DNA of 64,000 bases from an uncultured Alphaproteobacteria bacterium (GCA_947175875.1 CAMWON010000003.1:72746-136745), one strand, 5' to 3'. Positions 6,890 through 48,602 are shown, counted from the first letter of the stretch. Made by a program: numbers and translations. The notes: a model not told the origin generated them from the sequence alone.

Positions 6890-7876
6890 ATGCCGAACAT
6901 GAGAAAAAGTATATTTTGCATATTATCGGTTTTGTCATGCTTTGCGGTCGTGCCTGCGCTCGCAAACTGGGAATATTCGGGCACTTATCTGGGCGATGGA
7001 TGGTACACTGACGACGGTTCGCGCTTTGTCATGTCGGTCCGCGGCGGCGCCGCGCTGGGCTTTGGTTCGATAAAGAACGAGGTTGGGGCCCTAACCACCG
7101 AATATTATATAAACCCCGGCGACGGCATGGTTATATCGGCGGCGTATTATGACGCCTGTGTCGAGGGCGGCGGTTGCGCCGGATTTGAATACGCCGGCAT
7201 GGGTGAAACCTCCGCACTGCCCGCGGCCAAGGATTACCGTGAATATTCTTTTGCGGCCGGCGCGTCGCTGGGCTGGACGATTCCAAACCGTCCGCAGTGG
7301 CGTCTGGAAATCGGCTGGGACCATATATCAGAGGCGGAATATAACGCGTCCCCGTTATATGAAGGGGACCTGCATTTGGCCGGCGGCGATGTCGAAGGGG
7401 TTGTCGTCCATGTTCAAAGCGGCTCTATTCAGTCCAAAGTGACAACCGATTTAATCAGCGCAATGGCGTTTTACGATTTCTTTGACGGCATGCAAAAGCC
7501 TGTGCGTAAAATGATTCCGTATGTCGGCTTTGGCGTCGGATATGCGGATACGACGACGACACTGAATCTGGTTGACCCGTACGGCGACCTGTCAACGTCG
7601 GTTGACCTGCAGAATTTTGGTGAATTGGACGATTACGGCGTTCTGAACTTTTACCGTTCAGAAAACAGCTCTTCAAACATCGCCGGCGTGTTGGCGCTGG
7701 GTGTTTCGTACGGCATAAACCAGACAATGTTTTTGGATTTTGGCGCCCGCGTTTCTTATATTCCAAAGATAAAGTGGACCCTGAAAAATGAAGACGGTTC
7801 GCGCACGCGCGACTGGTTAAGTGCGGAAAACATGATATATGCAAACATCATGTTGGGCCTGCGTTTCGAGTTTTAA
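6890..7876 (+). CDS. outer-membrane beta-barrel protein (porin/OMP family)
   Basis: Signal peptide MRKSIFCILSVLSCFAVVPALA. Gly/Tyr/Asp-rich beta-strand pattern with C-terminal ...LGLRFEF. Confidence 0.55.
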   Translation: MPNMRKSIFCILSVLSCFAVVPALANWEYSGTYLGDGWYTDDGSRFVMSVRGGAALGFGSIKNEVGALTTEYYINPGDGMVISAAYYDACVEGGGCAGFEYAGMGETSALPAAKDYREYSFAAGASLGWTIPNRPQWRLEIGWDHISEAEYNASPLYEGDLHLAGGDVEGVVVHVQSGSIQSKVTTDLISAMAFYDFFDGMQKPVRKMIPYVGFGVGYADTTTTLNLVDPYGDLSTSVDLQNFGELDDYGVLNFYRSENSSSNIAGVLALGVSYGINQTMFLDFGARVSYIPKIKWTLKNEDGSRTRDWLSAENMIYANIMLGLRFEF

Positions 7877-7903
7877 AAAATCCGCCAAACGGCGGATTTT
7901 TTT
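7875..7903. terminator. bidirectional intrinsic terminator AAAAAATCCGCCAAACGGCGGATTTTTTT
   Basis: A GC hairpin (TCCGCC/GGCGGA) is flanked by an A-run and a T-run. It lies between the convergent OMP gene (+) and the cysteine-rich gene (-). Confidence 0.6.
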
Positions 7904-8183
7904 AGTTGCTGTAATAACAGTCGCCCGTATATGTGCCGCTGCCGCCGGAATCGCTGAACGCGGCTCCCGCCGGAATATAACACGCGGTTATCCCGGTGTT
8001 GTTTTTGTCGGCGCTGGTCCCCTTAATCCCGCCCGACGACGGGCATTCCAGGCAGTTCCCGCCCGACAGGTAATATCCCGGCTTGCACGCCGTGTATGTC
8101 TTTGTTGTCGCCTCGCATGCGGCGCGGGCACCGATTGCGGGCAATATGCCCGCAATGACAGATATCAAGATATATTTTTTCAT
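7902..8183 (-). CDS. secreted cysteine-rich protein, C-terminal CY-P-G / SGT / C-YY motif family (second gene of operon)
   Basis: The true start is the MKKYILISVIAGILPAIGARA signal peptide at 8183. Its ATG overlaps the TAA of the upstream gene (TAATG). The C-terminus ITACYIPAGAAFSDSGGSGTYTGDCYYSN matches the paralogues at 9131, 13291 and 46052. Confidence 0.6.
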   Translation of the reverse strand: MKKYILISVIAGILPAIGARAACEATTKTYTACKPGYYLSGGNCLECPSSGGIKGTSADKNNTGITACYIPAGAAFSDSGGSGTYTGDCYYSN

Positions 8184-8539
8184 TACAATTGCTCTCCAAT
8201 ACATGCCAAACATTTAATATTTGAACCCATAGATATGTCGCAACATTCCACTTGTGAACTGGTTGCGTCGCATGTGCCATAGTTTTGGGTATAGTATCCT
8301 GTGTTGTCACTGCCGCTGGTGGAACTGCGACTGCATGTGTTGTCTAAGTAGCTCAGGGTATAGTTTTCAGGACACGCATATCGCGTTGTATACTTCCCGT
8401 TTGGACAGCATTGTTGACCGGAACTGCAGGTAAGCTGAAAGTCTTGAGTTGTTATGCAAAGTGCCGCCATTGCGGTGCCGATTGGCGGCGTCTGCCAGGC
8501 AATGATTGCGGCTATGAATAAAGTTTTTGTTTTCGTCAT
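8183..8539 (-). CDS. secreted cysteine-rich protein (13 Cys in ~118 aa)
   Basis: The start MTKTKTLFIAAIIAW... is a signal peptide. The mature part is Cys/Ser/Thr/Gly-rich. The gene is immediately preceded by leader copy A with a CAGGAG RBS. Confidence 0.6.
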   Translation of the reverse strand: MTKTKTLFIAAIIAWQTPPIGTAMAALCITTQDFQLTCSSGQQCCPNGKYTTRYACPENYTLSYLDNTCSRSSTSGSDNTGYYTQNYGTCDATSSQVECCDISMGSNIKCLACIGEQL

Positions 8540-8682
8540 TACTAACTCCTGTTTTGTTGAAAAACAAAAACCACCAAGATAAATGGTGGCCAGGAGGTTC
8601 ATAACAATTGTGAGAATTGCGTTGCGTATTTAAATATTCCGCAACCCTCCTGACCGGGTCAGGAGTTTGTTTTTCGTCACAA
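8540..8682 (-). promoter_or_regulatory. conserved structured 5' leader (copy A) of the cysteine-rich protein operon
   Basis: About 140 nt shared with copies at 8985-9130 and 13864-14008. It contains a hairpin CTCCTGACC..GGTCAGGAG and a second, covarying hairpin. A CCTCCTGGCC box precedes a CCACC..GGTGG hairpin plus T-run, directly in front of the RBS CAGGAG-ATG. Confidence 0.55.
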
Positions 8683-8814
8683 TACCCCCGCGCGCAATAC
8701 TTGCGCTATCGGTATGTATTCCGACGCCCCACATGAGGTTATGAAGCCTCGCCCCGGCAACACGCCCGGGCACAGACATTATATTTAATAAAGCCTAAAA
8801 AGTAAAGGGATATA

Positions 8815-8843
8815 AAGAAATCCGCCAAACGGCGGATTTTTTA
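8815..8843. terminator. second identical copy of hairpin AAATCCGCCAAACGGCGGATTTTTT
   Basis: The 25-nt core is identical to the terminator at 7875-7903. It sits in the spacer between the two divergent leaders. Confidence 0.45.
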
Positions 8844-8984
8844 TGATTAAAATTCTTTACATATTTGTGTTGCTGAGTTATAGTGACTTATGTCAGTGGG
8901 TGTTTCACTGATGGGGTGTGAGAACCCGTTCCAATGCGTCGGAATATTGTCTTATGGCGCGCTTTGTGCGCTGTTTTTTATATT

Positions 8985-9130
8985 ACGACGAAAAACAAAA
9001 CTCCTGAACCGCGGGTCAGGAGGGCACGCGAAATATTCAAATACGCGGCACAATTCATTGGATTGTTCTCAACCTCCTGGCCACCAGATTTTGGTGGTTT
9101 TTTGTTTAACAAAAATCAGGAGATTGAATT
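8985..9130 (+). promoter_or_regulatory. conserved structured 5' leader (copy B)
   Basis: Same architecture as copy A: GACGAAAAACAAAACTCCTGAACCGCGGGTCAGGAGGG ... AACCTCCTGGCCACCAGATTTTGGTGGTTTTTTGTTT ... CAGGAG-N7-ATG. A -10-like TATATT lies just upstream. Confidence 0.55.
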
Positions 9131-9763
9131 ATGAAAAATCTATCAATTATTTCGCTATTGGCGATAATTAGTTGCGGACATGCGCCTGCTGTGGCAAGTT
9201 CCGCGCAATTTTATTGTTCGGACGGCTCGCGTCCCACAACGGGCTCTGGATATGATACATTTTGTGACGAGGCTGTTTTTTATACCTATTTGGGAGATAA
9301 TATTCGATGCGATACGGATGCTGATTGCTTTGACGGTGGAAATGCGAAATACGATTATGACGAACAAGATGTATATTGCTATAAAGGAACCTATGGATAT
9401 GTCAGCAACCGGGAAACATACGGTATTTGCGCCTATAAATACAGAAATGAAGCTGAATGCAAAAGCAATCAATTTTTTGGCTCCTGGTATGCGACCACAT
9501 TGGACAATCCAATCTTGGATAATGTGTGCATGATGTGTCCGGATAATGCGACTTGTGACGGAAAGGATGTAGAGTGTCATGATGGCTATTATTTAACAAA
9601 CACAAATACGCCATATAATCCCATATGCGCCAAGTGTCCCGGTGCTCCAGGCTTAATAGTGCACAGCAATAACGCAATACGCATAGAGGAATGTTACGCC
9701 ACTGGTGGCACAGACAGCAGTGGTACATTTGAATATACCGGTATGTGTACGTATTCGGAATGA
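9131..9763 (+). CDS. secreted cysteine-rich protein (family member, 210 aa)
   Basis: Signal peptide MKNLSIISLLAIISCGHAPAVA. There are 22 Cys. The C-terminus IEECYATGGTDSSGTFEYTGMCTYSE shares the family motif. Confidence 0.65.
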   Translation: MKNLSIISLLAIISCGHAPAVASSAQFYCSDGSRPTTGSGYDTFCDEAVFYTYLGDNIRCDTDADCFDGGNAKYDYDEQDVYCYKGTYGYVSNRETYGICAYKYRNEAECKSNQFFGSWYATTLDNPILDNVCMMCPDNATCDGKDVECHDGYYLTNTNTPYNPICAKCPGAPGLIVHSNNAIRIEECYATGGTDSSGTFEYTGMCTYSE

Positions 9764-13266: not shown

Positions 13267-13292
13267 TAAATCCCGCATCTGCGGGATTTTTT
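13267..13292. terminator. bidirectional intrinsic terminator AAATCCCGCATCTGCGGGATTTTTT
   Basis: GC hairpin with a flanking A-run and T-run, between secG (+) and the convergent cysteine-rich gene (-). Confidence 0.6.
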
Positions 13293-13863
13293 AATTTTTG
13301 TAATAGCAGTTTCCGCCGACAATTGTGCCGCTGCCCGTGCTGTCAGAAAAACTGCTGCCCGATGGCAGATAACACGATGTTATCGATGTTGCGCCGGCAG
13401 ATGCGGTTGTGCCGTACGTGCCGCCTGATGCCGGGCATCTGGTGCATCCGCTGGTGCCGTTTGTTGATGTGCCATAATATCCCTTGGCGCATCGGTATTT
13501 TTTTGTCGCGTCGCATGCCGACCCGCATTGAACGCTGTACTCATAACCTGTATTGCCGGCGGTCCACGCCACATCTTTGCAATTATTGCTGCATACGCAT
13601 TCCGTGCCGGATATGTTTGTACATGTTCCTGCTCTAACTTGTTTCAGGGTGCGATTCCCGGAACATTTGGTGCACCAATAAACATTGCTGGTCGTTATGC
13701 TTTCCACGTAATAGCATCCGCCATTATGGCCGGCTATGCAATAATCATAACTGCCAATCGTATTGGAACCGTTGGTGCATCCGGTACGTGTCTCGCATAC
13801 CGCGGCGAATACATTTACTGGCATGCAGATAAATGCAATTATTGGTAAAATTATGTTTTTCAT
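13291..13863 (-). CDS. secreted cysteine-rich protein (family member)
   Basis: The start at MKNIILPIIAFICMPVNVFAA is a signal peptide. There are 23 Cys. The C-terminus SCYLPSGSSFSDSTGSGTIVGGNCYYKN shares the family motif. It is preceded by leader copy C. Confidence 0.65.
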   Translation of the reverse strand: MKNIILPIIAFICMPVNVFAAVCETRTGCTNGSNTIGSYDYCIAGHNGGCYYVESITTSNVYWCTKCSGNRTLKQVRAGTCTNISGTECVCSNNCKDVAWTAGNTGYEYSVQCGSACDATKKYRCAKGYYGTSTNGTSGCTRCPASGGTYGTTASAGATSITSCYLPSGSSFSDSTGSGTIVGGNCYYKN

Positions 13864-14008
13864 TCGTTCGTTCTCCTGTTGTTTTTCGAAATGAAAAACC
13901 ACCCAAAATTTGAGTGGCCAGGAGGTTCAGAACAATCTCAAGAATTGTGTGCTTATTCAATATATTCGCAACCCTCCTGACCTGCGGTTCAGGAGTTTAT
14001 TTTTCGTC
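13864..14008 (-). promoter_or_regulatory. conserved structured 5' leader (copy C)
   Basis: Same element as copies A and B. The hairpins are CTCCTGAACCGCAGGTCAGGAG and CCACTCAAATTTTGGGTGG plus T-run, then CCTCCTGGCC. The RBS CAGGAG lies 11 nt before the ATG. Confidence 0.55.
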
Positions 14009-14140
14009 CGAATATTAAAAATGGCGCTGTGCGCCCAATATTATATTCCTTGACGCTTGAGCAGAGGTTCTGACACCCCATCGGCGAAACACCCGCCGAC
14101 AAATAAATTATATATCACGCCATGCGCAAAAACAAGAAAT

Positions 14141-16647: not shown

Positions 16648-18120
16648 AGATTGACAGCCGTTCAATTCCATCAGGATATTGAACGGTTTTCTTATTGAAT
16701 ATACTAACTTTTTATCTTTTAATTCGCAGTTCGAAAGTAGCAGGTTTATAATTTGGCGTTTTTGTTCTACTTTCGAACTCCGGAATAATTCCGCCGCGTG
16801 GGACGCCACAGCCAGCAAGGATTCCACCGTCGTTATAAATTCGTCATCTGCCTTGGAATGTGCTTCCAGATGCACGCCCACATCATACAGTTCTTTCTCT
16901 ATATCATTCTTTTTGTCGGCATATTCTTCCTGTGTAATGCTACCCGTCAGCAAGAAATCCAACAAGCGGCTTCTTTTGGACTTTAAAGCATCTTGCTTTT
17001 TACGAAGATTGTCTATCTCTGCCAACGCATAGGCATTTTCTGCCTGTGAGATATTGGTCAGGCATTTCGCTACCTCTTGCATAATATCACGCGGAAAGGA
17101 CAGCTTTTTTAATACCTCATCCTGAATCTGTTGAAATAAGACATCTTCATTTACCGCCAGTTGCGTGCAATTCCCCTTAAAATGTGAACAAGATAGGTAT
17201 GTATAGGTCTTTCCGCTGGGCTTTGTCTTGGTGTCGCTGGTAATCGCGCACCCGCAGTCGGCACATTTTATCAGGCCGCGAAACGCATACGGCTTTTCTG
17301 CATATTTAAATCTGGTGCGGTTCTTACCGTTCATTATCGCCTGACACTTATCATACAAAGACTTATCAATCAATGGTTGATAAATATGCGGATAAAGCGC
17401 GCCTTTGACGTTCATCATTCCGTAATAAAAAGGATTGTTTAATATATTGAAAATCGCGGCCTTTGTAATAGGTTTCCCGCTGATTTTGTTTGTCAGCCCC
17501 CATTCGGCAGCATTTTTAACCAGTTCACCAATCGTATACAAGCCAGAGGCATATTCTTCAAATAGCCTTTGTATTCCGGGGGCACGTTCCGGGTCAACAA
17601 TTATAATGGGCTTATTATTGTCATCCCGGCGGTTTAGATAACCCAGCGGAGCCTGACTTTGCCAGATGCCGTGTTTCGTGTTATAGTCAATGCTTCTTTT
17701 TACATTATCCCGAAGATTGCCAACATAGGTTTTGGCGGAAAATACGCCTAAATCCCACATTGCAATCTCATTTGAACTAGAATCGCGATGCAAACGCAGA
17801 TTTTCCCGGATAAAATGCAGTTCCGCCTTGTCCGCTTTGCGTAATTCATCTAATTCAACAGATTCCTTAAAACTGCGCTGGACGCGGTCGATACAATCCG
17901 CAACAATGGCGATTTTTTCCCGTTGTGCTTTGACAAAGTTCAGCATTTCAACGAACTTTTTACGGTCGCCACGCGTTGAGCTTTCGGTTATTTGAAAGGT
18001 TTCCAGCAGTGTCAGCCCATTGCGCTGGATATATTTATTCAAATTTTCCAGCTGTGCATCAATGGACATCCCATTTTCTTGTTCCCGCGACGATACACGC
18101 GCCAATATCACTGCCTTCAT
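16615..18120 (-). CDS. large serine recombinase (site-specific integrase)
   Basis: N-terminal resolvase catalytic domain MKAVILARVSSREQ. Recombinase domain plus Cys-rich zinc ribbon (CADCGC...CSHFKGNC) and a C-terminal coiled coil. The stop codon lies inside the 3' end of tRNA-Gln. Confidence 0.85.
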   Translation of the reverse strand: MKAVILARVSSREQENGMSIDAQLENLNKYIQRNGLTLLETFQITESSTRGDRKKFVEMLNFVKAQREKIAIVADCIDRVQRSFKESVELDELRKADKAELHFIRENLRLHRDSSSNEIAMWDLGVFSAKTYVGNLRDNVKRSIDYNTKHGIWQSQAPLGYLNRRDDNNKPIIIVDPERAPGIQRLFEEYASGLYTIGELVKNAAEWGLTNKISGKPITKAAIFNILNNPFYYGMMNVKGALYPHIYQPLIDKSLYDKCQAIMNGKNRTRFKYAEKPYAFRGLIKCADCGCAITSDTKTKPSGKTYTYLSCSHFKGNCTQLAVNEDVLFQQIQDEVLKKLSFPRDIMQEVAKCLTNISQAENAYALAEIDNLRKKQDALKSKRSRLLDFLLTGSITQEEYADKKNDIEKELYDVGVHLEAHSKADDEFITTVESLLAVASHAAELFRSSKVEQKRQIINLLLSNCELKDKKLVYSIRKPFNILMELNGCQSWLGQLDSNQH

Positions 18121-18253
18121 TACGTATTCTCTTGGTTTTACTTAGATTTATTATACCTTACGAAAGAAACAATACCAGAGTTTATTATCATAAAATGCCA
18201 AGGCTTGAAAAATGGTAATTTTTTCGTATATCATTAACAAAAAGGGACTGTAA

Positions 18254-21200
18254 ATGAAATTAATAACCTCCACAGATTTACAAAATTGGGCAAAAACGCG
18301 CGAGTCAGAGCAATATTTGCCACTTTTGCTTAGAAGGTTGATTATAAATAAAGTGGGCTTTGATAATATACAACATATTACAATACCGGGTGGTGATAGT
18401 ATATGGAAGCCCGGTGTTGATGGAAAGATTCTTACTCGTGTTGATAGCTTGTTGGGCGAAAAAGATAAAACGTACATGGTAGAGTGCGGTCAGTGTGTTG
18501 AAGATAAACAAAAATTTGAAAATGACTTGAAAAAACGAACAGCTCAACTAGGTGGTGTTAAACAAAAAAATTCTGCATTTGTCTTTATAACTACAAATAA
18601 AATCAAAGATTTAAATAGTACGTTAAATGCAACGAAAGAAAAAGTAGAAGGTAGTGATTTATGGGCTGATATCAAATTATATGATGCAGATGACATAGAA
18701 ACTTGGCTTGACAATGATTTTGCAACGTTTGCATGGCTGGCAGATATTATGGGCAAACAGTCTAATGGCTTAAAAGATTTTGATGGTTTTTGGAAAACTT
18801 GGAAAGCTTCTACTGAAATTCCAATTGACGAAGATATAATCTTAGCGCGCGCGAACACTTATCAAAACGAGGTATATAAATTTTTAAAGAAGGCTTCCGG
18901 AGTTTTTCATATAAAATCATTCAGTCGGAAAGAATCTTTATTGTTTTTTATGGCTTCTATATTAAAAGCACATTTTCCAGAGGATGAGATAGATGCAATA
19001 AAATCCAAAATTGTTATAGTTCAGGATGCTGATGTTTGGAATCGTGTGGTTGAGGATGGTGAAGCAAGCAAGTTTATATTTATTCCATTTTTCGGAATAC
19101 CAGAAAATTTGGGCTTTTTAGTGGACAAAGGTTTGCAGATTTTTATACCAATGGGCGAAAATGATGGAAAAGGAACAGAGTCTAATACTGTCCATATAGA
19201 ACCTTTTAATAATGAGATTTTATACAGTGTGCTAGAGAAGAAGTTAAGTTCATATGAAAAAACCAACCAAATTATTAACAAACTGGGGCATAATGGCACA
19301 TTGCTGCATTTACAAAGAATTATGGAACGCAAAGATGTTTCTAGGCCTGCGCCTCAATGGGTAAGTAAAGAAAATTCGGAGATTTTATTGCTAGCTTCAT
19401 TCGTTGGTGGTTGGTCAGACCAAAATACTAAGGACAAAGAAGCGATAGCCAGTATTTTTGGAATGAATTATTCAGAAATAGTAAAGAAGCTATCTTTTTT
19501 TATCAAAACGGAGGAAGCACCCATACGAAAAATAGGCGATATTTGGGAAGTTGGTTCGCCAGATATTATAATTGATTATTTAGGAGGGCATTTGACCGAA
19601 GATACTCTCAAGAGATATCTAAACGAAACTAAGAAGATTTTATCTGAAATAGATTTGCGCTATAATGAACGTGGTACGAGAAATCTTCTAGCTTCTTATG
19701 ATTTTAGCAGTGGAAAACATACATATTATTCAAAAAACTTAATTTGTGGAATTGGAAATGGGTATGCGGCAATTGCCAACAAAGAGAATAAATTTGTAAA
19801 TTTAAACAGTGTTGAATTCAGAATCCAACAAAATGTACAAAAACTCTTAGAAGATAAAAATTGGAAGAAGTGGGCTACTTTAAATCCTATAATGCCTCTA
19901 TTTGCTGAAGCAGCAAAAGAGAAATATTTGGAATTGCTTGAAAATGTTGTTGCAAATACCCCCTCTTTAATAATTGACCTTTATGAGAAAGGCGAGGATA
20001 TGGGGTTTATGGGAGAGTGTCTGTATTCTGGTATTTTATGGGGGCTTGAGAATCTTGCCTGGTTTGAACCATTTTTTATGAGGGTTATTAATATATTGGT
20101 AAAGATGGAAAAAATTAGAAGAGAAAATTTACGATACGGAAATTCTCCAATAGATACTTTAAATCGCATTTTCTGTACGTGGCTTCCAAATACTTTGGTT
20201 GATTTAAATAAACGGCAATTATGCATATCAAATATATTGAGAACAAATAAAAACTCGGATGTTTTATTTAATTTGTTATATAATTTACTGCCAACAGAAC
20301 ACATGACGTGTCAGCCTACCCATAGGCCACATTTTATTGAATTGCACGCCCCAGAACGCGTTTCTCGTCTAGCTATAGGTAAGTTTAATAATTTTATATA
20401 TACAGAAATTATTAATATGATAGGATGCGATAAAGATAAATGGGATAAGGTAATTCGTTATATAACATATATGAATCCAGAAAGATTCGATATGTTTATA
20501 AATACATTAAAATCTATTGATTGGTTGAATGCAGATGCCGAATTAAAAAACTCTGTATATCAGAATTTAGAACATTGGGTTGATTCTGCTCATCGCTGGA
20601 GTGATGAAAACGCACAGAATTGGGGCGCAGCTGAAAAAATAGCCAGAATAAATGATATATTGACGGAACTCATGCCAACTAATCCTATAGATAAGAATAT
20701 ACGTATCTTTTCTAAGTTTTCGGTTTGGAATTATAGAGAGTACTCGGGAAGCCCCAGTCCCAGATTGCAACAAGCCATTCAAGAAATAATTAGTTCTAGC
20801 GGTCTGCAGGGATTGATTGACTTTGCCAAGCAGATTGACGCTGTTGACGTTCTTGGAGAAGAGTTAGCATTATCTAATATATCGATGGCTGATGTTGTAT
20901 GGCTTTTAAATTCTTCCGATAGAAAAGACCCAAAAGTACAAAGATTTTTATCCGTATTGTTTGCGGTTATCATAAATATTAGAGGGCTGAGTTTAGTCGG
21001 TAAGATTTTTAGTGATGATTGGGAAATTGAATATAAGCAGGCTTTGATATGTACTGTAAAAGGTAATGAAGCATATTGGGAATGGGTGGAGAAAAAAGGA
21101 TTTTCTGAATTGTACTGGAAAAACACAGGTGCAATTTGGCCAAATACTGATAAAGAATATGATATTGCAATTAACAAGTTAAAGGAATTTAGGAAGTTTC

Positions 21201-22033
21201 CTGAATTAGCAACTTTACTTGCCATGCAAAATCGTAGACAAAGCGGGGTTAGAACCGAAGATATTGTAGATTTGCTGTTTGGTATAGCAGAGTCTTCAAA
21301 AGAACAACTTAATAATATGGACTGGTATCATATACAGGACTTATTTAAAATTTTACATAAACGTTCCGACATAGATGAAAAAATTATGTTTAATTTAGAA
21401 ATTAATTATTTTGAATTATTTGATGGTTCAAATGAATTAGAGCCGGTATATATCTATAAGCAACTAAAGGCAAATCCAGAGCTGTTCATAGAGGTAATTT
21501 CTTTAATGTTTGCTAAAAAGGAAGAATCTAAAGAAAAAAGTGAAGAAGAACAAAACAGGTTAAAAAATGCTATAAAAATAGCTCAGAAAATGTATTTTAA
21601 ATTAGAAAAAGATTATATATTTAATGATAAATCCGAACTACACAACTGGGTAAAACGTGCTATGGAGTTGTTAGATAAATTAGAGGAAAAGGAATTAAGT
21701 AGCACAGGAATGAGACAAATTGGTGCTATGTTGGCTAATTGTCCGACTGACCCTAATGACGACATTTGGCCTATTGGCTATGTCAGGGAGCTGCTAGAAG
21801 AAGCGTGTAATCGGGATATAATAGAGGGTATAGTTAGGGGAAAATATAATTCCTGTGGGTTCCATTCTGTTGACCGTACGAATCCGGGGGGGTATTGGGA
21901 AGAGAAGGCTATCAAATTTAGAGCAGATGCTGCTTCTATAAGATTTCAATATCCCAAAACAGCAGAAATATTGGATTGTTTGGCCAAAGATTTTGAAATA
22001 AATGCTAAACGAGCCATAACGGATATTATGTAA
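18254..22033 (+). CDS. very large hypothetical protein (1259 aa), AT-rich, mostly alpha-helical
   Basis: Uninterrupted 3.8-kb ORF. It has no P-loop, no HExxH and no obvious nuclease motif. A distinct ~150-aa N-terminal domain is followed by a long helical region. Confidence 0.7.
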   Translation: MKLITSTDLQNWAKTRESEQYLPLLLRRLIINKVGFDNIQHITIPGGDSIWKPGVDGKILTRVDSLLGEKDKTYMVECGQCVEDKQKFENDLKKRTAQLGGVKQKNSAFVFITTNKIKDLNSTLNATKEKVEGSDLWADIKLYDADDIETWLDNDFATFAWLADIMGKQSNGLKDFDGFWKTWKASTEIPIDEDIILARANTYQNEVYKFLKKASGVFHIKSFSRKESLLFFMASILKAHFPEDEIDAIKSKIVIVQDADVWNRVVEDGEASKFIFIPFFGIPENLGFLVDKGLQIFIPMGENDGKGTESNTVHIEPFNNEILYSVLEKKLSSYEKTNQIINKLGHNGTLLHLQRIMERKDVSRPAPQWVSKENSEILLLASFVGGWSDQNTKDKEAIASIFGMNYSEIVKKLSFFIKTEEAPIRKIGDIWEVGSPDIIIDYLGGHLTEDTLKRYLNETKKILSEIDLRYNERGTRNLLASYDFSSGKHTYYSKNLICGIGNGYAAIANKENKFVNLNSVEFRIQQNVQKLLEDKNWKKWATLNPIMPLFAEAAKEKYLELLENVVANTPSLIIDLYEKGEDMGFMGECLYSGILWGLENLAWFEPFFMRVINILVKMEKIRRENLRYGNSPIDTLNRIFCTWLPNTLVDLNKRQLCISNILRTNKNSDVLFNLLYNLLPTEHMTCQPTHRPHFIELHAPERVSRLAIGKFNNFIYTEIINMIGCDKDKWDKVIRYITYMNPERFDMFINTLKSIDWLNADAELKNSVYQNLEHWVDSAHRWSDENAQNWGAAEKIARINDILTELMPTNPIDKNIRIFSKFSVWNYREYSGSPSPRLQQAIQEIISSSGLQGLIDFAKQIDAVDVLGEELALSNISMADVVWLLNSSDRKDPKVQRFLSVLFAVIINIRGLSLVGKIFSDDWEIEYKQALICTVKGNEAYWEWVEKKGFSELYWKNTGAIWPNTDKEYDIAINKLKEFRKFPELATLLAMQNRRQSGVRTEDIVDLLFGIAESSKEQLNNMDWYHIQDLFKILHKRSDIDEKIMFNLEINYFELFDGSNELEPVYIYKQLKANPELFIEVISLMFAKKEESKEKSEEEQNRLKNAIKIAQKMYFKLEKDYIFNDKSELHNWVKRAMELLDKLEEKELSSTGMRQIGAMLANCPTDPNDDIWPIGYVRELLEEACNRDIIEGIVRGKYNSCGFHSVDRTNPGGYWEEKAIKFRADAASIRFQYPKTAEILDCLAKDFEINAKRAITDIM

Positions 22034-44744: not shown

Positions 44745-45326
44745 ATGGCAAAATTACATTTTCACTATGGAACGATGAGCAGCTCCAAATCCGCCCAGTT
44801 GATTATCAACGCCTATAATTTGAACAACCAGGGCAAACAGACGGAAATAATCAAACCGCAGACGGACAACCGTTTCAGTGAAGACAAGGTAAATTCCCGC
44901 GTCGGCATATCGGCCAATGCCACGGTGTTAAAAACTTTGGACGGTTACGCGCCGCACCCGGATACCAAAATGCTGTTGATTGACGAAATACAGTTTTTCG
45001 CGCCGTCCGATATCGATGCGCTGGTTCGCATTGCCGATAACACGCCGATAATCGTAATGTGCTATGGCCTAATGGTTGACAGCAACGAGCAGATTTTTCC
45101 CGCTTCGCGCCGGTTGGTAGAGGTCGGCGCCAAACTGCACCGCATGGAATCAACGTGCCAAATGCCGGGCTGCATGCACCTGGCGACGCACCATCTGCGC
45201 TTTGATGCGAATGGTCGCGTTGTGCGCGCCGGCGCCCAGATTGCCGTCGGTGACAGCAACTATAAATCGGTCTGCCGCATGCATTATAACCGGATGTATT
45301 ACGGTAAAAACGAAAAGACGAAATAA
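44745..45326 (+). CDS. tdk: thymidine kinase
   Basis: P-loop GTMSSSKS, the LIDEIQFF box and a C-terminal zinc-binding Cys cluster. Confidence 0.85.
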   Translation: MAKLHFHYGTMSSSKSAQLIINAYNLNNQGKQTEIIKPQTDNRFSEDKVNSRVGISANATVLKTLDGYAPHPDTKMLLIDEIQFFAPSDIDALVRIADNTPIIVMCYGLMVDSNEQIFPASRRLVEVGAKLHRMESTCQMPGCMHLATHHLRFDANGRVVRAGAQIAVGDSNYKSVCRMHYNRMYYGKNEKTK

Positions 45327-45340
45327 TTCGTAATTATTTC

Positions 45341-45368
45341 TTGCATTTTAAATAAATAGGTATAAAAT
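45341..45368 (+). promoter_or_regulatory. sigma70-type promoter of tRNA-Arg
   Basis: TTGCAT, a 16-nt spacer, then TAAAAT, ending 11 nt upstream of the tRNA. Confidence 0.5.
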
Positions 45369-45379
45369 ATAACAACGTT

Positions 45380-45456
45380 GCGTCCATGGCTCAATTGGAT
45401 AGAGCATCTGACTACGGATCAGAAGGTTGGGGGTTCGAATCCTCCTGGACGCGCCA
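45380..45456 (+). tRNA. tRNA-Arg (anticodon ACG)
   Basis: Acceptor stem GCGTCCA/TGGACGC, anticodon arm TCTGA-CTACGGA-TCAGA, T-loop GGTTCGAATCC, and a 3' GCCA. Confidence 0.85.
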
Positions 45457-45506
45457 GAATTAAACCGACCTTGTGTCGGTTTTAATTTATTAATAAGGGG
45501 GAAAAT

Positions 45507-45848
45507 ATGGCATCAAGTGCGGAATTTATAAAATTTGTTTCAGACCAGGTGTCGACCGCGGGCGACAATATCCGTTATCGCAAAATGTTTGGCGATTATA
45601 TGCTTTATTGTGATGACCGTCCGGTGTTGCTGATATGCGACGACACGGTGTATGTAAAGCAGATTCCCGAAACCATGTCTATATTTGCCGCGCACGGCAT
45701 CACGCCGGATGCGGGCGTTCCGTATAATGGCGCGCGTCCACATTGGATTCTGGACATCGAAAATATTGATTTGTCGGTTGACATGGTGCGTGAACTGGCG
45801 CGCGTATTGCCGGTGCCAAAGCCAAAGAAAAAGAAAGTCTCAAAATAA
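45507..45848 (+). CDS. TfoX N-terminal domain-like protein
   Basis: The 113-aa sequence MASSAEFIKFVSDQVSTAGDNIRYRKMFGDYMLYCDD... resembles the TfoX/Sxy N-terminal domain. It has a lysine-rich tail. Confidence 0.5.
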   Translation: MASSAEFIKFVSDQVSTAGDNIRYRKMFGDYMLYCDDRPVLLICDDTVYVKQIPETMSIFAAHGITPDAGVPYNGARPHWILDIENIDLSVDMVRELARVLPVPKPKKKKVSK

Positions 45849-45851
45849 ACA

Positions 45852-45875
45852 AGCGCCCGTTTGGGCGTTTGTTCT
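45852..45875. terminator. intrinsic terminator AGCGCCCGTTTGGGCGTTTGTTCTT
   Basis: Hairpin plus T-rich tract immediately after the stop. Confidence 0.45.
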
Positions 45876-46051
45876 TATCTGTATATAGCATGTTGATAGT
45901 ACGTAAAAAAATAGTTGTTTTATATGCCTAATTAAAACGTACGTTTCTTTTCAACATAACTTTAACGCCGCAAAAGCGCCCTTGTCAAGCCTGTTTTTAT
46001 GCTGAACATAATCCTAGGTTTTTATGCGTAAAGCAAAAAAAAGGGAAGAGG

Positions 46052-46348
46052 ATGAATAAACGTTTTTTGTTCTATGTTTGCGTGGCGGCCTTTGTCGCCT
46101 TGGCTGGGAATAGGGCATACGGTGCCATAGCATGCAAAGTATATAGTTGTAATGTCGGGTACTTTGCCTCAGAGTATTCCTGTCCCAGATGTCCGGCGCT
46201 GCAGCGTGCAGATGGTGGAATGCAATATGGAATAACAGCATCGGCGGGGCTGTCGGATATTACCGCGTGCTATGTTCCGGCGGGTGTTAAGTATAAAGAT
46301 GCCGTCGGCGAGTTTGAATTCGTATCAAACTGTAATTATTCACGATAA
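46052..46348 (+). CDS. secreted cysteine-rich protein (family member, 98 aa)
   Basis: Signal peptide MNKRFLFYVCVAAFVALAGNRAYG. The C-terminus ITACYVPAGVKYKDAVGEFEFVSNCNYSR shares the CY-P-G ... C-Y motif. Confidence 0.55.
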   Translation: MNKRFLFYVCVAAFVALAGNRAYGAIACKVYSCNVGYFASEYSCPRCPALQRADGGMQYGITASAGLSDITACYVPAGVKYKDAVGEFEFVSNCNYSR

Positions 46349-46362
46349 AGGAGGGAGCGGTA

Positions 46363-46917
46363 ATGGCAAAGCAGATAAAAAGTTTTTGGTTAAAGCTAAC
46401 AGCTTGTTTTTTTACATTGTATTTTGCACCAATCGGTCACTTGATATTGTCGCTGTTTGGCGTACGCACAAATACGGGAAAAGCATATGCGGGAACAGTA
46501 TATTGCGAAAACAATTCTTCGACTAAGCGGGAGTGCGCAGGGCACAGCGGAAATGTTCAGGGCGGTGAGACAATTCGGTGTACGTGTCTTACGAATTCGT
46601 CCATGGTCTATGACCTGGAATGTGTCCCTGAATATCGTGGCGCTTGGAATCATGAATATGAAGAGGCATATTTTAGGGAGAGTGGCTGTTATTCTTTAAA
46701 CGCGTGTTCGCCAAACGGATCAACAAAAGACTGTAGCACAGCGTCGCAATATTGCACCCAGACCTGTACCGGTGGTGTATGGGGGGTAAAAGTATGGGGT
46801 AATTGCAAGTCGGGATATATAAAAATCAATGGTTCTTGTACCGCAGAATGCTCTATTTCCAATGGCAAAGGATATGAAGTTGAAGAAAGCTCTTCGTCGT
46901 CATCTTCTGAAGCATAA
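46363..46917 (+). CDS. secreted cysteine-rich protein with poly-Ser C-terminal tail
   Basis: N-terminal hydrophobic segment, 17 Cys, and an SSSSSSSEA tail. It lies 14 nt after the previous gene, so it is probably co-transcribed. Confidence 0.5.
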   Translation: MAKQIKSFWLKLTACFFTLYFAPIGHLILSLFGVRTNTGKAYAGTVYCENNSSTKRECAGHSGNVQGGETIRCTCLTNSSMVYDLECVPEYRGAWNHEYEEAYFRESGCYSLNACSPNGSTKDCSTASQYCTQTCTGGVWGVKVWGNCKSGYIKINGSCTAECSISNGKGYEVEESSSSSSSEA

Positions 46918-46978
46918 TATATTTGCGCCGGCGTTTGTGTATAACCGTCAGCTGGAGCCGAATTTATGGGCCCCCGAT

Positions 46979-47668
46979 ATGCAGCTGCGCACAATGCCGT
47001 CAAATTCGTTGCAGATGATTGTCTGGCATTATATTGCGTATATGCAAAATGTTGGACTGCCAATCAAAGATGAAGATGTTGTGGATATATTTCTGCATGG
47101 CTCTTCATCAAATTATTATTACGACCCGACCAGCGATATAGATATCTGTATTGTTATGGATATGCGGCGGCTTTCTGATGAATTGCCCGGCATTGATATA
47201 TTTGCGCTGACTACGGCCATGAAAGTTGCATGGCTGCGCAGCCGCAGAATTCGCATATATGGTCGCGGTGTTGATATCAGTATTGTTGACGTGAATCAGC
47301 CGAAGTACGGTCCCGGCATGTACAAGGTCGGTCCGGCGTATTCTTTGCCGCGCGACATGTGGGTTCGGCGTCCCATGCGTCTAAGTAATTCGGAAATTCG
47401 CGTGTTGCGCCGGCGCGCTGGCAAGATATATCGCCGTTATAAAAAATTGTTTCGGGAGTGTTACAAGAATAAAATGTCCGACACGTTTTTGGACACGTTC
47501 CTCTCGCGCCTCTGGTCGGAACGTCGAGAGGCATATTCTTTAAGCCCGCTACAGCCCATCACGCCCGAAACAATGGCGTTCAGAATGATGCGCCGGTGCG
47601 GTGTCTTGAACAAGATAAAGGCGCGCCTGGAAACATTGAAAAATAAAAATTTTACATTGAACGCATAA
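46979..47668 (+). CDS. putative nucleotidyltransferase (Pol-beta superfamily fold)
   Basis: Motif LHGSSSNYYYDPTSDIDICIV fits the NTase h-G-S ... D-h-D-h signature. The start is uncertain because the ORF extends upstream to 46829 into the preceding gene. Confidence 0.45.
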   Translation: MQLRTMPSNSLQMIVWHYIAYMQNVGLPIKDEDVVDIFLHGSSSNYYYDPTSDIDICIVMDMRRLSDELPGIDIFALTTAMKVAWLRSRRIRIYGRGVDISIVDVNQPKYGPGMYKVGPAYSLPRDMWVRRPMRLSNSEIRVLRRRAGKIYRRYKKLFRECYKNKMSDTFLDTFLSRLWSERREAYSLSPLQPITPETMAFRMMRRCGVLNKIKARLETLKNKNFTLNA

Positions 47669-47698
47669 AAAGAAACGCCCGGTCGGGCGTTTCTTTTT
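47667..47698. terminator. bidirectional intrinsic terminator AAAAAGAAACGCCCGGTCGGGCGTTTCTTTTT
   Basis: Perfect extended palindrome between convergent genes. Confidence 0.55.
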
Positions 47699-47714
47699 AT
47701 TTTATAAGCATGGA

Positions 47715-48602
47715 TTAAATGCTGTCGGCATTTATCCAGCGGCCGTTCTGCAACAGACCCGGCGCCATACCCTCGTTGCTGCGCAGGGAATCAATCACAC
47801 TGCGTGCCTGGGCCGCGTTCAGGCCGACAATACGTACCTTGTACAAATCGCCTTCCTTAACAACAACCGCGTTGCCGTATGTGCGCATGCGTGCCGCCAT
47901 GGCGTTCGCGCTGTCTTCGGAATACAGGGCCGCCAGCTGTACGCTGTAATCACCGGCGGGTGCCGCGGCCGGCTGCGGTGCCGGTGTTGTTACCGTTTCC
48001 GTAACGGTTACGGTCTCGGTCACTGTCTGAACCGGTGTCGATGCGCCGATTGTCGCATTTTTTACCTGCATTGACTGTTCCGGCAATACCTGAATCTGAA
48101 TCTTTGCCTGGCCGTTCATGCCAATCTGACGTGCCGCCGCCGGCGACAGGTCCATAATACGAGTGTTAACAAACGGGCCGCGGTTGTTCACGCGAACAAC
48201 GACGGACTGGCCGTTGTCCAAATTCGTTACGCGTGCAATCGTCGGCAGGGGCAGCGTCTTGCTGGTTGCAACCATCTGGTTAACGTCAAACGTTTCACCG
48301 TTGCTGGTTTTTGTGTCGTTCAGTTCGGCCGGGATGATACCCGCAACGCCGGTCTGGTTGTATGTCATGTCTTCGACCGGGATGTACTGAACATCTTCAA
48401 CCTTGTATGCGCTGCCGATATAGTACTTTGGTGCCGCCGCCAACAGGTATGCGTTGTTCAATGTCTGGGAATCGGCCGTTGTAATCAATGTTTCTTCGCC
48501 AAAGCCGTCGGTGCCGTATCCGCCGCCGGTATTGTTGTTCGTGCCGGTTGTACATGCCCCCAGCAATGCGGCCAATGCCGCCAAGGAAACTAATTTTTTC
48601 AT
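47715..48602 (-). CDS. rlpA: RlpA-like lipoprotein with C-terminal SPOR domain
   Basis: Lipobox LLGAC. DPBB-like segment VRVNNRGPFVNTRIMDLSPAAARQIG. The C-terminal region has a SPOR-like pattern (YSVQLAALYSEDSANAMAARM...YKVRIVGL). Confidence 0.6.
   Translation of the reverse strand: MKKLVSLAALAALLGACTTGTNNNTGGGYGTDGFGEETLITTADSQTLNNAYLLAAAPKYYIGSAYKVEDVQYIPVEDMTYNQTGVAGIIPAELNDTKTSNGETFDVNQMVATSKTLPLPTIARVTNLDNGQSVVVRVNNRGPFVNTRIMDLSPAAARQIGMNGQAKIQIQVLPEQSMQVKNATIGASTPVQTVTETVTVTETVTTPAPQPAAAPAGDYSVQLAALYSEDSANAMAARMRTYGNAVVVKEGDLYKVRIVGLNAAQARSVIDSLRSNEGMAPGLLQNGRWINADSI

Follow-up and report, generated by a model that had tools for sequence, protein, structure and literature searches.

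Six small genes, termed A to F here, encode cysteine-rich proteins in a stretch of 64,000 nucleotides from an uncultured bacterium of the Alphaproteobacteria (GCA_947175875.1, CAMWON010000003.1:72746-136745; hereafter, the window), and genes B, C, and D are each preceded by a copy of a conserved RNA leader (Table 1). An earlier reading of the window, made by a model from the sequence without database searches (the sequence-only reading), had combined the six proteins into one paralogous family of secreted proteins. Our comparisons instead separate them into a C-module family (A, C, D, and E), a B-like family, and the unrelated single-copy protein F in a conserved E-F operon. All six open reading frames (ORFs) are present at the positions originally given, and A is the second gene of a B-A operon, its start overlapping the stop of B in a TAATG that is directly legible in the sequence at 8183. 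The number of cysteines had been put at 12 to 23 per protein, whereas the actual counts reach down to 6 in A and do not exceed 18. Signal peptides had been attributed to all six proteins; judged by a crude rule only (K/R plus a hydrophobic run), they look convincing for A to E, but F has a longer hydrophobic N-terminus that might serve to anchor it in a membrane. None of the six proteins matches a Pfam or NCBIfam family, in agreement with the earlier description of a Cys-, Gly-, Ser-, Thr-, and Tyr-rich paralogous family with signal peptides and no family assignment.

As judged by sequence comparison, A, C, D, and E share one C-terminal module (the C-module), and B and F are different proteins. 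The motif that had been noticed at these four C-termini reflects true homology: pairwise BLASTP gave E values of 2e-18 (A-D), 6e-15 (A-E), 2e-13 (D-E), 1e-6 (A-C), 1e-4 (C-D), and 3e-5 (C-E), and an approximately 67-residue C-module hidden Markov model (HMM), built exclusively from relatives outside the window, recognized D, A, E, and C with E values of 1e-35, 5e-27, 4e-17, and 2e-11, respectively. The same HMM returned 0.34 for B and 1 for F, which bears out the earlier statement that these two lack the motif, and comparison of the family profile with B and F by hhalign resulted in probabilities of 8.5% and 0.1%, respectively. The consensus of the C-module is YRCAxGYYGxSTNGTSGCxxCPxxGGxYGTTxxAGxTxITSCYxPSGxxFSDSTGSGTYTxNCYY(K/S)N. 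A six-frame regular-expression scan detected the strict motif in A, D, and E only, with a looser CYATGG form in C. An SGSDxTGYY stretch in B faintly resembles the WxAxxTGYE motif of the C-module family, the hhalign probability being the 8.5% given above.

Relatives of the C-module proteins are numerous. A word-indexed search with D yielded 104 clusters (90% identity), almost all unnamed or labeled "hypothetical protein," from metagenome-assembled genomes (MAGs) of Alphaproteobacteria. A profile of 107 sequences, searched against 1.84 billion representatives, detected 1,779 clusters (50% identity) at E ≤ 1e-3 and 1,040 at E ≤ 1e-10, and encoded relatives in species-representative genomes (one genome per species) amounted to 174 genomic matches; the motif is thus recovered well beyond the copies in the window. 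Eighty loci were retained from these 174 matches, chosen by protein with the trimmed C-module alignment A3. They derive from gut MAGs of mouse, human, chicken, roe deer, rabbit, and other hosts, labeled Alphaproteobacteria, Candidatus Enterousia, or Rickettsiales, and MAG CANSHD01 alone carries at least 10 family loci on two contigs (697 and 271 kb). Bacteria of Enterousia and of the order Rs-D84 have genomes below 1 Mb, lack amino acid, nucleotide, and lipid biosynthesis as well as respiration, and have been proposed to be probably obligate symbionts or parasites of other cells (PMC12306168).

A typical family member is predicted to be Sec-exported, comprises roughly 200 residues, and consists of cysteine to about 10%. 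The signal peptide is followed by a head of about 75 residues, whose conservation is essentially limited to the cysteines, by the motif WxAxxTGY(E/Q)xR, and by the C-module. Mean pairwise identity is 0.16 in the signal peptide, 0.27 in the head (0.17 without the Cys columns), 0.36 in the middle motif, and 0.66 in the C-module. The heads appear to be exchangeable functional modules. In the relative P0035, residues 149 to 178 of the head match SapB_2 (PF03489) with 26.3 bits, above the cut-off of 21, and a relative encoded downstream of the leader at locus L156 scores 18.5 bits over residues 79 to 106. This cut-off was reached by 1 of the 107 members scanned and by none of the six window proteins; likeness to saposin-like proteins (SAPLIP) is confined to this one subfamily head. 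The saposin-type fold is a lipid- and membrane-binding fold found mostly in eukaryotes, and its occurrence here is remarkable, the lineage being reportedly devoid of lipid biosynthesis. The AlphaFold2 model of D is all-beta, with a predicted local distance difference test (pLDDT) score of 91.5, whereas that of A alone (pLDDT 64.5) was too poor for a structure search.

The C-module resembles the disulfide-ladder repeat of the ephrin-receptor/TNFR type, a borderline likeness that formally stays below the membership threshold. Its first half has the CxxCPxG...G(A/S)T(S)...C spacing of the Ephrin_rec_like and GCC2_GCC3 repeats, which stand close to the wider TNFR-type and furin-like Cys-rich repeats, and in alignment A3 the spacing C-x2-C-P-x-G...G-A/S-T-S-x3-C is formed by the invariant residues C19, C22, G26, and C43 and the nearly invariant P23. 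Eight of the 107 members match PF07699 (Ephrin_rec_like) at E ≤ 0.1, the best being P0054 with 22.7 bits over this first half (profile positions 13 to 48 of 48) versus a cut-off of 23.1, and no match to PF07699 at E ≤ 1 was obtained with A, C, D, or E. Structure searches in three libraries, PDB and BFVD among them, ranked TNFR, R-spondin, and Eph ectodomains at the top, none of them significantly, and the family profile had no match among PDB sequences. Ephrin and TNFR repeats form extracellular disulfide-ladder beta-hairpin rods, as predicted for the proteins studied here. However, the terminal CYxPxG..SDxxGxG..CYY hairpin and the WxAxxTGYE motif of the C-module family are without counterpart in these repeats, and the family consists of short bacterial proteins with one or two repeats instead of long eukaryotic repeat arrays.

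The most informative feature of the locus, which the sequence-only grouping had missed, is the conserved structured RNA leader of about 240 nucleotides. It was found because the annotated N-terminal extensions of three relatives (P0029, P0035, and P0057) resemble translated DNA from the region upstream of gene C. Nucleotide identity among the regions that precede B, C, and D is 77 to 79% over 145 to 239 nucleotides, and the window contains exactly three leader copies, neither E nor F being preceded by one. When the 80 protein-chosen loci were searched with an HMM of these three copies, the leader was located immediately before the family gene in about 70 of them. A protein-independent DNA pattern (GGTCAGGAGGG..CAATTC..ATTG..CCTCCTG) retrieved 79 loci from metagenome contigs and a single match among 2.9 million viral contigs. 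Taken over all sequences searched, 162 leader hits were followed by 135 unique complete ORFs, 98 of which encode a C-module, and the crude signal peptide rule was passed by 90 of these 98 proteins and by 32 of the other 37. Predicted export of the product is thus almost always associated with the leader.

About 11 of the 37 products without a C-module, B included, constitute a second family with the motif CCxxG..CPxG[WY]T..CxR..SGSD..GYYTQxYGTC. Leader-linked proteins of this family (loci L096, L130, L143, L105, L081, L062, L139, and L071) matched B in BLASTP with E values of 4e-10 to 3e-17. A few of the remaining products resemble outer-membrane beta-barrels or other exported proteins; at locus L107, the leader stands directly before an outer membrane protein (OMP)-like protein, different from the one encoded at 6890-7876 in the window. 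The earlier assignment of B and F to the family by context was therefore justified for B, through the shared leader and a second leader-linked family rather than through homology, but not for F, which has no such link. Likewise, the three loci distinguished earlier comprise two unlike situations, the leader-controlled genes B-A, C, and D and the leaderless syntenic pair E-F.

The leader also bears on annotation. In the NCBI record, A is called as a 93-amino-acid (aa) gene, B is not annotated, and C is given as a shorter 157-aa product without its signal peptide; we place the start of C at the ATG at 9131 because the junction of the leader with the Shine-Dalgarno (SD) sequence supports it. In some other MAGs, the leader has been translated as a spurious N-terminal extension of 70 to 90 residues of the downstream protein, as in the three relatives by which it was found. 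The possibility that the leader itself encodes a protein segment or a leader peptide was dismissed: a frame is open in only 5 of 50 copies, and the lengths are not multiples of three. At gathering thresholds, Rfam 15 (4,227 families) identified only three tRNAs in the whole window and nothing on the leaders, and permissive Rfam searches added no family on the leaders beyond one subthreshold match to sRNA-Xcc1.

Compensatory base changes mark the leader as a structured RNA by prediction. Its anatomy was derived from alignment A4 of 50 copies, to which all column numbers refer. The -35 element TTG and the -10 element TATAAT, separated by a 17-nucleotide spacer, are conserved over the 50 leaders, and a promoter scan also detected them in the copies of B and C. 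RNAalifold and an independent filter for double changes agree on the helices listed in Table 1. Paired cells amounted to 96.4%, versus 83.7% in shuffled alignments and 35 to 53% with partners slid; double-sided changes occur in 28 of 49 leader pairs, and the observed covariation was reached in none of 500 shuffles. Frequent G-U pairs fit the sense strand only. Folding of single sequences was far more favorable than that of shuffled ones (RNAfold z = -5.95 for leader C and -4.56 for leader D) and recovered H1, HB, HC, HD, and HE, and a scan found the terminator-like hairpin in all three window copies.

Table 1. Genes, promoters, and leaders in the window, and elements of the leader RNA in alignment A4
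Feature	Position (window) or columns (A4)	Strand	Description
Gene A	7902..8183	-	93 aa; signal peptide and one C-module; 6 Cys; minimal family member
Gene B	8183..8539	-	118 aa; 11 Cys; second leader-linked Cys-rich family; without C-module
Leader of B-A operon	8540..8771	-	nhmmer 198 bits; terminator-like hairpin 8591-8569 and U-run; SD CAGGAG just before ATG at 8539
Promoter of leader B, sigma70-type	8778..8806	-	TTTACT-17-TATAAT
Promoter of leader C, sigma70-type	8856..8884	+	TTTACA-17-TATAGT; divergent from B promoter
Leader of gene C	8892..9130	+	248 bits; H1 8892-8914, long-range HA/HB, CUCCUGA/UCAGGAG hairpin, terminator-like hairpin 9079-9099 and U-run, SD 9117-9122
Gene C	9131..9763	+	210 aa; 16 Cys; divergent family member; lipobox-like IISC in signal peptide
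Gene D	13291..13863	-	190 aa; 18 Cys; typical full-length member: signal peptide, variable Cys-scaffold head, WTAGNTGYE middle motif, C-module
Leader of gene D	13864..14100	-	246 bits; terminator-like hairpin 13919-13897
Promoter of leader D	-10 ~14108-14113; -35 TTG ~14134-14136	-	-10 and -35 elements
Gene E	46052..46348	+	98 aa; 7 Cys; signal peptide and C-module; without leader; first gene of conserved E-F pair
Gene F	46363..46917	+	184 aa; 14 Cys; hydrophobic N-terminus; poly-Ser acidic tail; not homologous to C-module family
H1	cols 57-65/72-79		7/8 pairs covary
HA, long-range	cols 80-82/273-275 and 87-92/264-269		100% paired and 5/6 covary (both for helix 87-92/264-269); up to 28/50 sequences changed on both sides
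HB, long-range	cols 99-104/253-260		5/6 pairs covary; four to five pair types each
HC	cols 105-108/174-177		Closes long hairpin with GC-rich tip (HD)
Pseudoknot pair	84:247		U-A to C-G in 6/6 variants
HE	cols 191-197/210-216		Invariant hairpin CUCCUGA/UCAGGAG
Terminator-like hairpin	cols 280-285/297-302		94% paired; U-run conserved in ≥90% of sequences

About 20 nucleotides downstream of the U-tract lie the SD sequence CAGGAG and then the ATG. They are preceded in the leader by two copies of an anti-SD, CUCCUG (columns 191-196 and 273-278), and by a single SD mimic, UCAGGAGG (columns 210-217), all invariant in the 50 sequences. In minimum free energy folds, the 3' anti-SD (CCUCCUG) pairs with the real SD CAGGAG around the terminator-like hairpin. 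The apical GC-rich hairpin HD (8954-8974 on the plus strand; 14035-14023 on the minus strand) is followed by a conserved U-run and was flagged as terminator-like as well, and the leader may hold two tandem termination points. Columns 222 to 244 (about 9056-9078) form an AU-rich hairpin loop, AAUAUAUUGAAUAA/GGAAUAUUCAAUA, which is highly conserved in sequence and occurs with two discrete stem variants. A palindromic loop, AAUAUAUU or GAAUAUUC, was considered as a kissing or operator site and dropped, being present in many copies but not in all (A4, inspected by eye).

We infer that the leader is most likely a cis-acting attenuator, either riboswitch-like or factor-binding. Its layout, with a predicted terminator and predicted SD sequestration, corresponds to the logic of attenuator and riboswitch expression platforms: covarying helices are mixed with highly conserved unpaired nucleotides, a terminator-like hairpin and U-tract lie just upstream of the SD, and the anti-SD and SD-mimic segments are capable of exclusive pairing. 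It differs from the known leaders of this kind in that it precedes a multigene family of exported proteins rather than metabolic or transport genes, and in its copy number, which reaches 10 or more in a genome of about 1 Mb. In the mechanism that we propose, the anti-SD copies, the SD mimic, and the terminator-like hairpin would pair in mutually exclusive ways. Pairing of GGUCAGGAGG (columns 208-217) with CCUCCUGRCC (columns 272-281) would leave the SD unpaired and open the terminator-like stem at its base, and HA would also occupy columns 273 to 275. Because these pairings (3' anti-SD, GGUCAGGAGG, and HA) overlap, the long-range fold, the terminator-like hairpin, and access to the SD would be structurally coupled. 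Formation or disruption of the long-range fold might thereby decide on transcription read-through and SD availability, and a single signal might in this way govern the entire set of exported proteins, which at least 10 genes encode in a genome of about 1 Mb.

Gene E reuses the C-module in what gene order indicates to be a stable leaderless operon within a housekeeping envelope-gene neighborhood. In the window (44745-48602) and at loci L161 to L163, the order is thymidine kinase (TK), (tRNA-Arg), TfoX_N, E, F, a protein of about 270 aa, an RlpA-like lipoprotein, MurJ, and BamD, and other MAGs retain the arrangement TK, TfoX_N, E-like (94 aa), F-like (185 aa), 264 aa, 293 aa, MurJ, and BamD/YfiO. 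The E ortholog at L161 is a conserved 94-aa protein. F has 17 relatives and appears to be single-copy, with relatives located beside an E-like gene; its poly-serine acidic tail, EESSSSSSSEA, is kept in its relatives, and the gene for the approximately 270-aa protein overlaps its 3' end. The pair had been described as lying beside tRNA-Arg, but this tRNA (45380-45456) is about 600 nucleotides away from E, with the TfoX_N gene in between, and is simply part of the synteny.

With an about even degree of belief, we interpret these genes as a leader-controlled regulon of exported, disulfide-rich modular proteins that would serve interaction with a partner or host and stand under a shared attenuator. 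The proteins are most likely disulfide-stabilized, rod-like surface or secreted binding proteins, with the variable heads as the specificity or effector part, engaging the partner or host cell that these auxotrophic bacteria would need, and the C-module as a common stalk, anchor, or assembly module; one subfamily head would be a saposin-type lipid- or membrane-binding domain. A disulfide-rich extracellular or host-interaction role, already favored in the sequence-only reading, is still the best guess and is now backed by taxonomy (PMC12306168) and by the saposin-type head in one subfamily. Several points weigh against this interpretation. Sec signals in a diderm prove export to the periplasm only. 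The window organism, represented by a gut MAG and genome-reduced, is placed in Rs-D84 by inference from its relatives, its label stating only "Alphaproteobacteria bacterium." Orthologs of D share 54 to 60% full-length identity across MAGs, paralogs within a genome being much more divergent, which argues for stable specialized paralogs and not for fast-evolving host-evasion genes. As to the RNA, the terminator-like stem is short (6 bp), and the proposed switch is beyond the reach of covariation because the anti-SD, SD-mimic, and SD segments are invariant. Moreover, riboswitches usually govern metabolic or transport genes, not a surface-protein family.

More tentatively, the leader might represent a signal-sensing RNA of a new class, either a riboswitch or an RNA to which a dedicated regulator docks, by which a host or partner cue switches the whole partner-interaction repertoire. 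If so, this repertoire would comprise the C-module family, the B-like family, and a few outer-membrane-like proteins, 10 or more genes in total; the leader would mark an "interaction regulon," and the Cys-rich heads, including the saposin-like one, would be tools for attachment to the partner and for extraction of lipids or metabolites.

A serious rival for the RNA part, though to us a doubtful one, is a leader that does not respond to a signal, being either a constitutive 5' untranslated region that stabilizes abundant mRNAs for exported proteins and boosts their translation, like that of ompA, or a trans-acting small RNA (sRNA) of about 215 nucleotides that is mainly terminated, with leak-through into the downstream gene. 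The near-consensus promoter, which suggests high expression, fits such a leader, no ligand is known for it, and a terminator-like hairpin with a U-tract is the typical 3' end of an sRNA. However, a conserved terminator between promoter and SD would be costly for a pure stabilizer, the two anti-SD copies and the SD mimic, invariant in 50 sequences, suggest regulated access to the SD, and more than 10 near-identical genes for trans-acting sRNAs, each attached to a secreted-protein gene, would be unusual. This alternative also draws on a weak resemblance to sRNA-Xcc1 (RF02221), an integron-cassette RNA that precedes symE in Xanthomonas. Its model can be aligned over the full length with the 3' half of leader C (9014-9090); both RNAs have a G/C-rich closing stem of 9 to 10 bp (GGNCNGGNGG/CCNCCNGNCC) around two hairpins, followed by ACC, and both lie upstream of a gene in the same orientation, but taxon and downstream genes differ. 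Membership was rejected, since the score of 26.8 bits is half the gathering score of 53 and ten other leaders gave no match at E ≤ 10, and the resemblance is probably due to chance or convergence.

Regarding the proteins, we consider it unlikely that they are periplasmic or envelope structural proteins, or metal- or redox-buffering proteins with cysteines as ligands, rather than interaction proteins. A Sec signal alone would be satisfied by a periplasmic location in a diderm, CxxC pairs could bind metals, and E-F is embedded among envelope genes (RlpA-like, MurJ, and BamD). Hypervariable heads in which only the Cys scaffold is conserved nevertheless fit diversified binding surfaces better, and the closest sequence and fold analogs, though weak, are extracellular disulfide-ladder repeats.

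A role as secreted toxins, bacteriocin-like peptides, or pore formers directed against competitor or prey cells, also raised in the sequence-only reading, seems distinctly unlikely. It would accord with the small size, cysteine richness, and export of the proteins and with the one saposin-like (SapB_2) subfamily head, the saposin fold being used by amoebapores and NK-lysin. Yet the neighboring genes offer nothing in its favor, with no immunity gene, dedicated ABC/peptidase exporter, or leader-peptide processing signal beside the family genes; a size of about 190 aa and a rod-like repeat architecture are atypical of bacteriocins, and the SapB_2 match is restricted to a single member of the 107.

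Even less probable, in our view, is antigenic or phase variation, with the leader and the C-module as homology arms between which heads are shuffled among paralogs by recombination. Recombination-driven variation has parallels in Anaplasma msp2/p44, Neisseria pilE/pilS, and Mycoplasma vsp, and variable surface families such as Giardia VSP (PF03302), Mycoplasma Vsp/Vlp, and Anaplasma Msp2/P44 share with the family described here many paralogs in a small genome of a host-associated lineage and a conserved 5' untranslated or leader region and C-terminal part around a hypervariable center. Like Giardia VSPs, the proteins are rich in Cys and CxxC, and 2 of the 107 members give weak VSP matches, the best (P0086, 17.8 bits) below the PF03302 cut-off of 31.4. 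In contrast to these families, a transmembrane CRGKA tail, lipoprotein repeats, silent cassettes, and an invertible promoter are absent. All copies examined consist of a complete ORF with a promoter and an SD of its own, truncated silent cassettes were not encountered, and no invertase is consistently adjacent. Conservation of the leader is explained by a covarying RNA structure with compensatory changes, and the greater similarity of D orthologs between MAGs than of paralogs within a genome speaks against ongoing gene conversion. Finally, a mere compositional coincidence among low-complexity Cys/Gly/Ser/Thr-rich ORFs, suggested by biased composition (C, G, S, T, and Y make up about 49% of A), has a negligible chance of being true, being refuted by the profile search, by an HMM built without window sequences (E values of 1e-35 to 2e-11), and by thousands of relatives in which Cys, Tyr, Pro, and Gly keep the same register.

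Neither the protein family nor the leader RNA is described in Pfam, NCBIfam, Rfam, or the searchable literature, in which our searches retrieved neither of them. Both nevertheless belong to known types, the one being a family of secreted Cys-repeat proteins and the other a structured 5' leader that includes a terminator/SD platform. Three aspects set them apart: the coupling of a large, strongly covarying RNA exclusively to a multigene family of exported proteins, the copy number of the leader in a genome of about 1 Mb, and the presence of eukaryote-type extracellular modules (ephrin-receptor/TNFR-like and saposin-like) in an obligately dependent gut bacterium. Uncultured Alphaproteobacteria of the Rs-D84/Enterousia type have a wide distribution among gut communities of humans, mice, poultry, and ruminants, and their metabolism suggests that they live off other cells. 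A family that fills 1% or more of a tiny genome, is exported, has hypervariable heads, and is linked to one shared RNA is an obvious candidate for the interaction machinery. The leader can be used as a sequence tag for finding the regulon in any metagenome, and it is a directly testable RNA that extends, with good support, the list of large structured RNAs of bacteria to which no function is assigned. The protein family merits a Pfam/DUF entry, which would correct recurrent annotation errors such as overlooked genes, starts that truncate the product, and N-terminal extensions that are translated leader.

Further observations concern the surroundings of the six genes. A DsbA-like CxxC oxidoreductase motif was not found in the 64-kb window, which is a fraction of the genome only. 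Convergent with gene A, the plus-strand gene at 6890-7876 encodes a 328-aa signal peptide protein whose last residue is F and which gives weak matches to PagL, OMP-like proteins, and the Rickettsia adhesin Adr; it is probably an outer-membrane beta-barrel, and both genes share a bidirectional terminator-like hairpin at about 7877-7901. The GC content of the stretch 18001-22000 is low (0.34 versus about 0.50 elsewhere), its GC and AT skews are both strongly positive, and it may have been acquired horizontally as an island. Genes for DpnI-like, BstA_C, and large serine recombinase proteins are located on the flanking contig.

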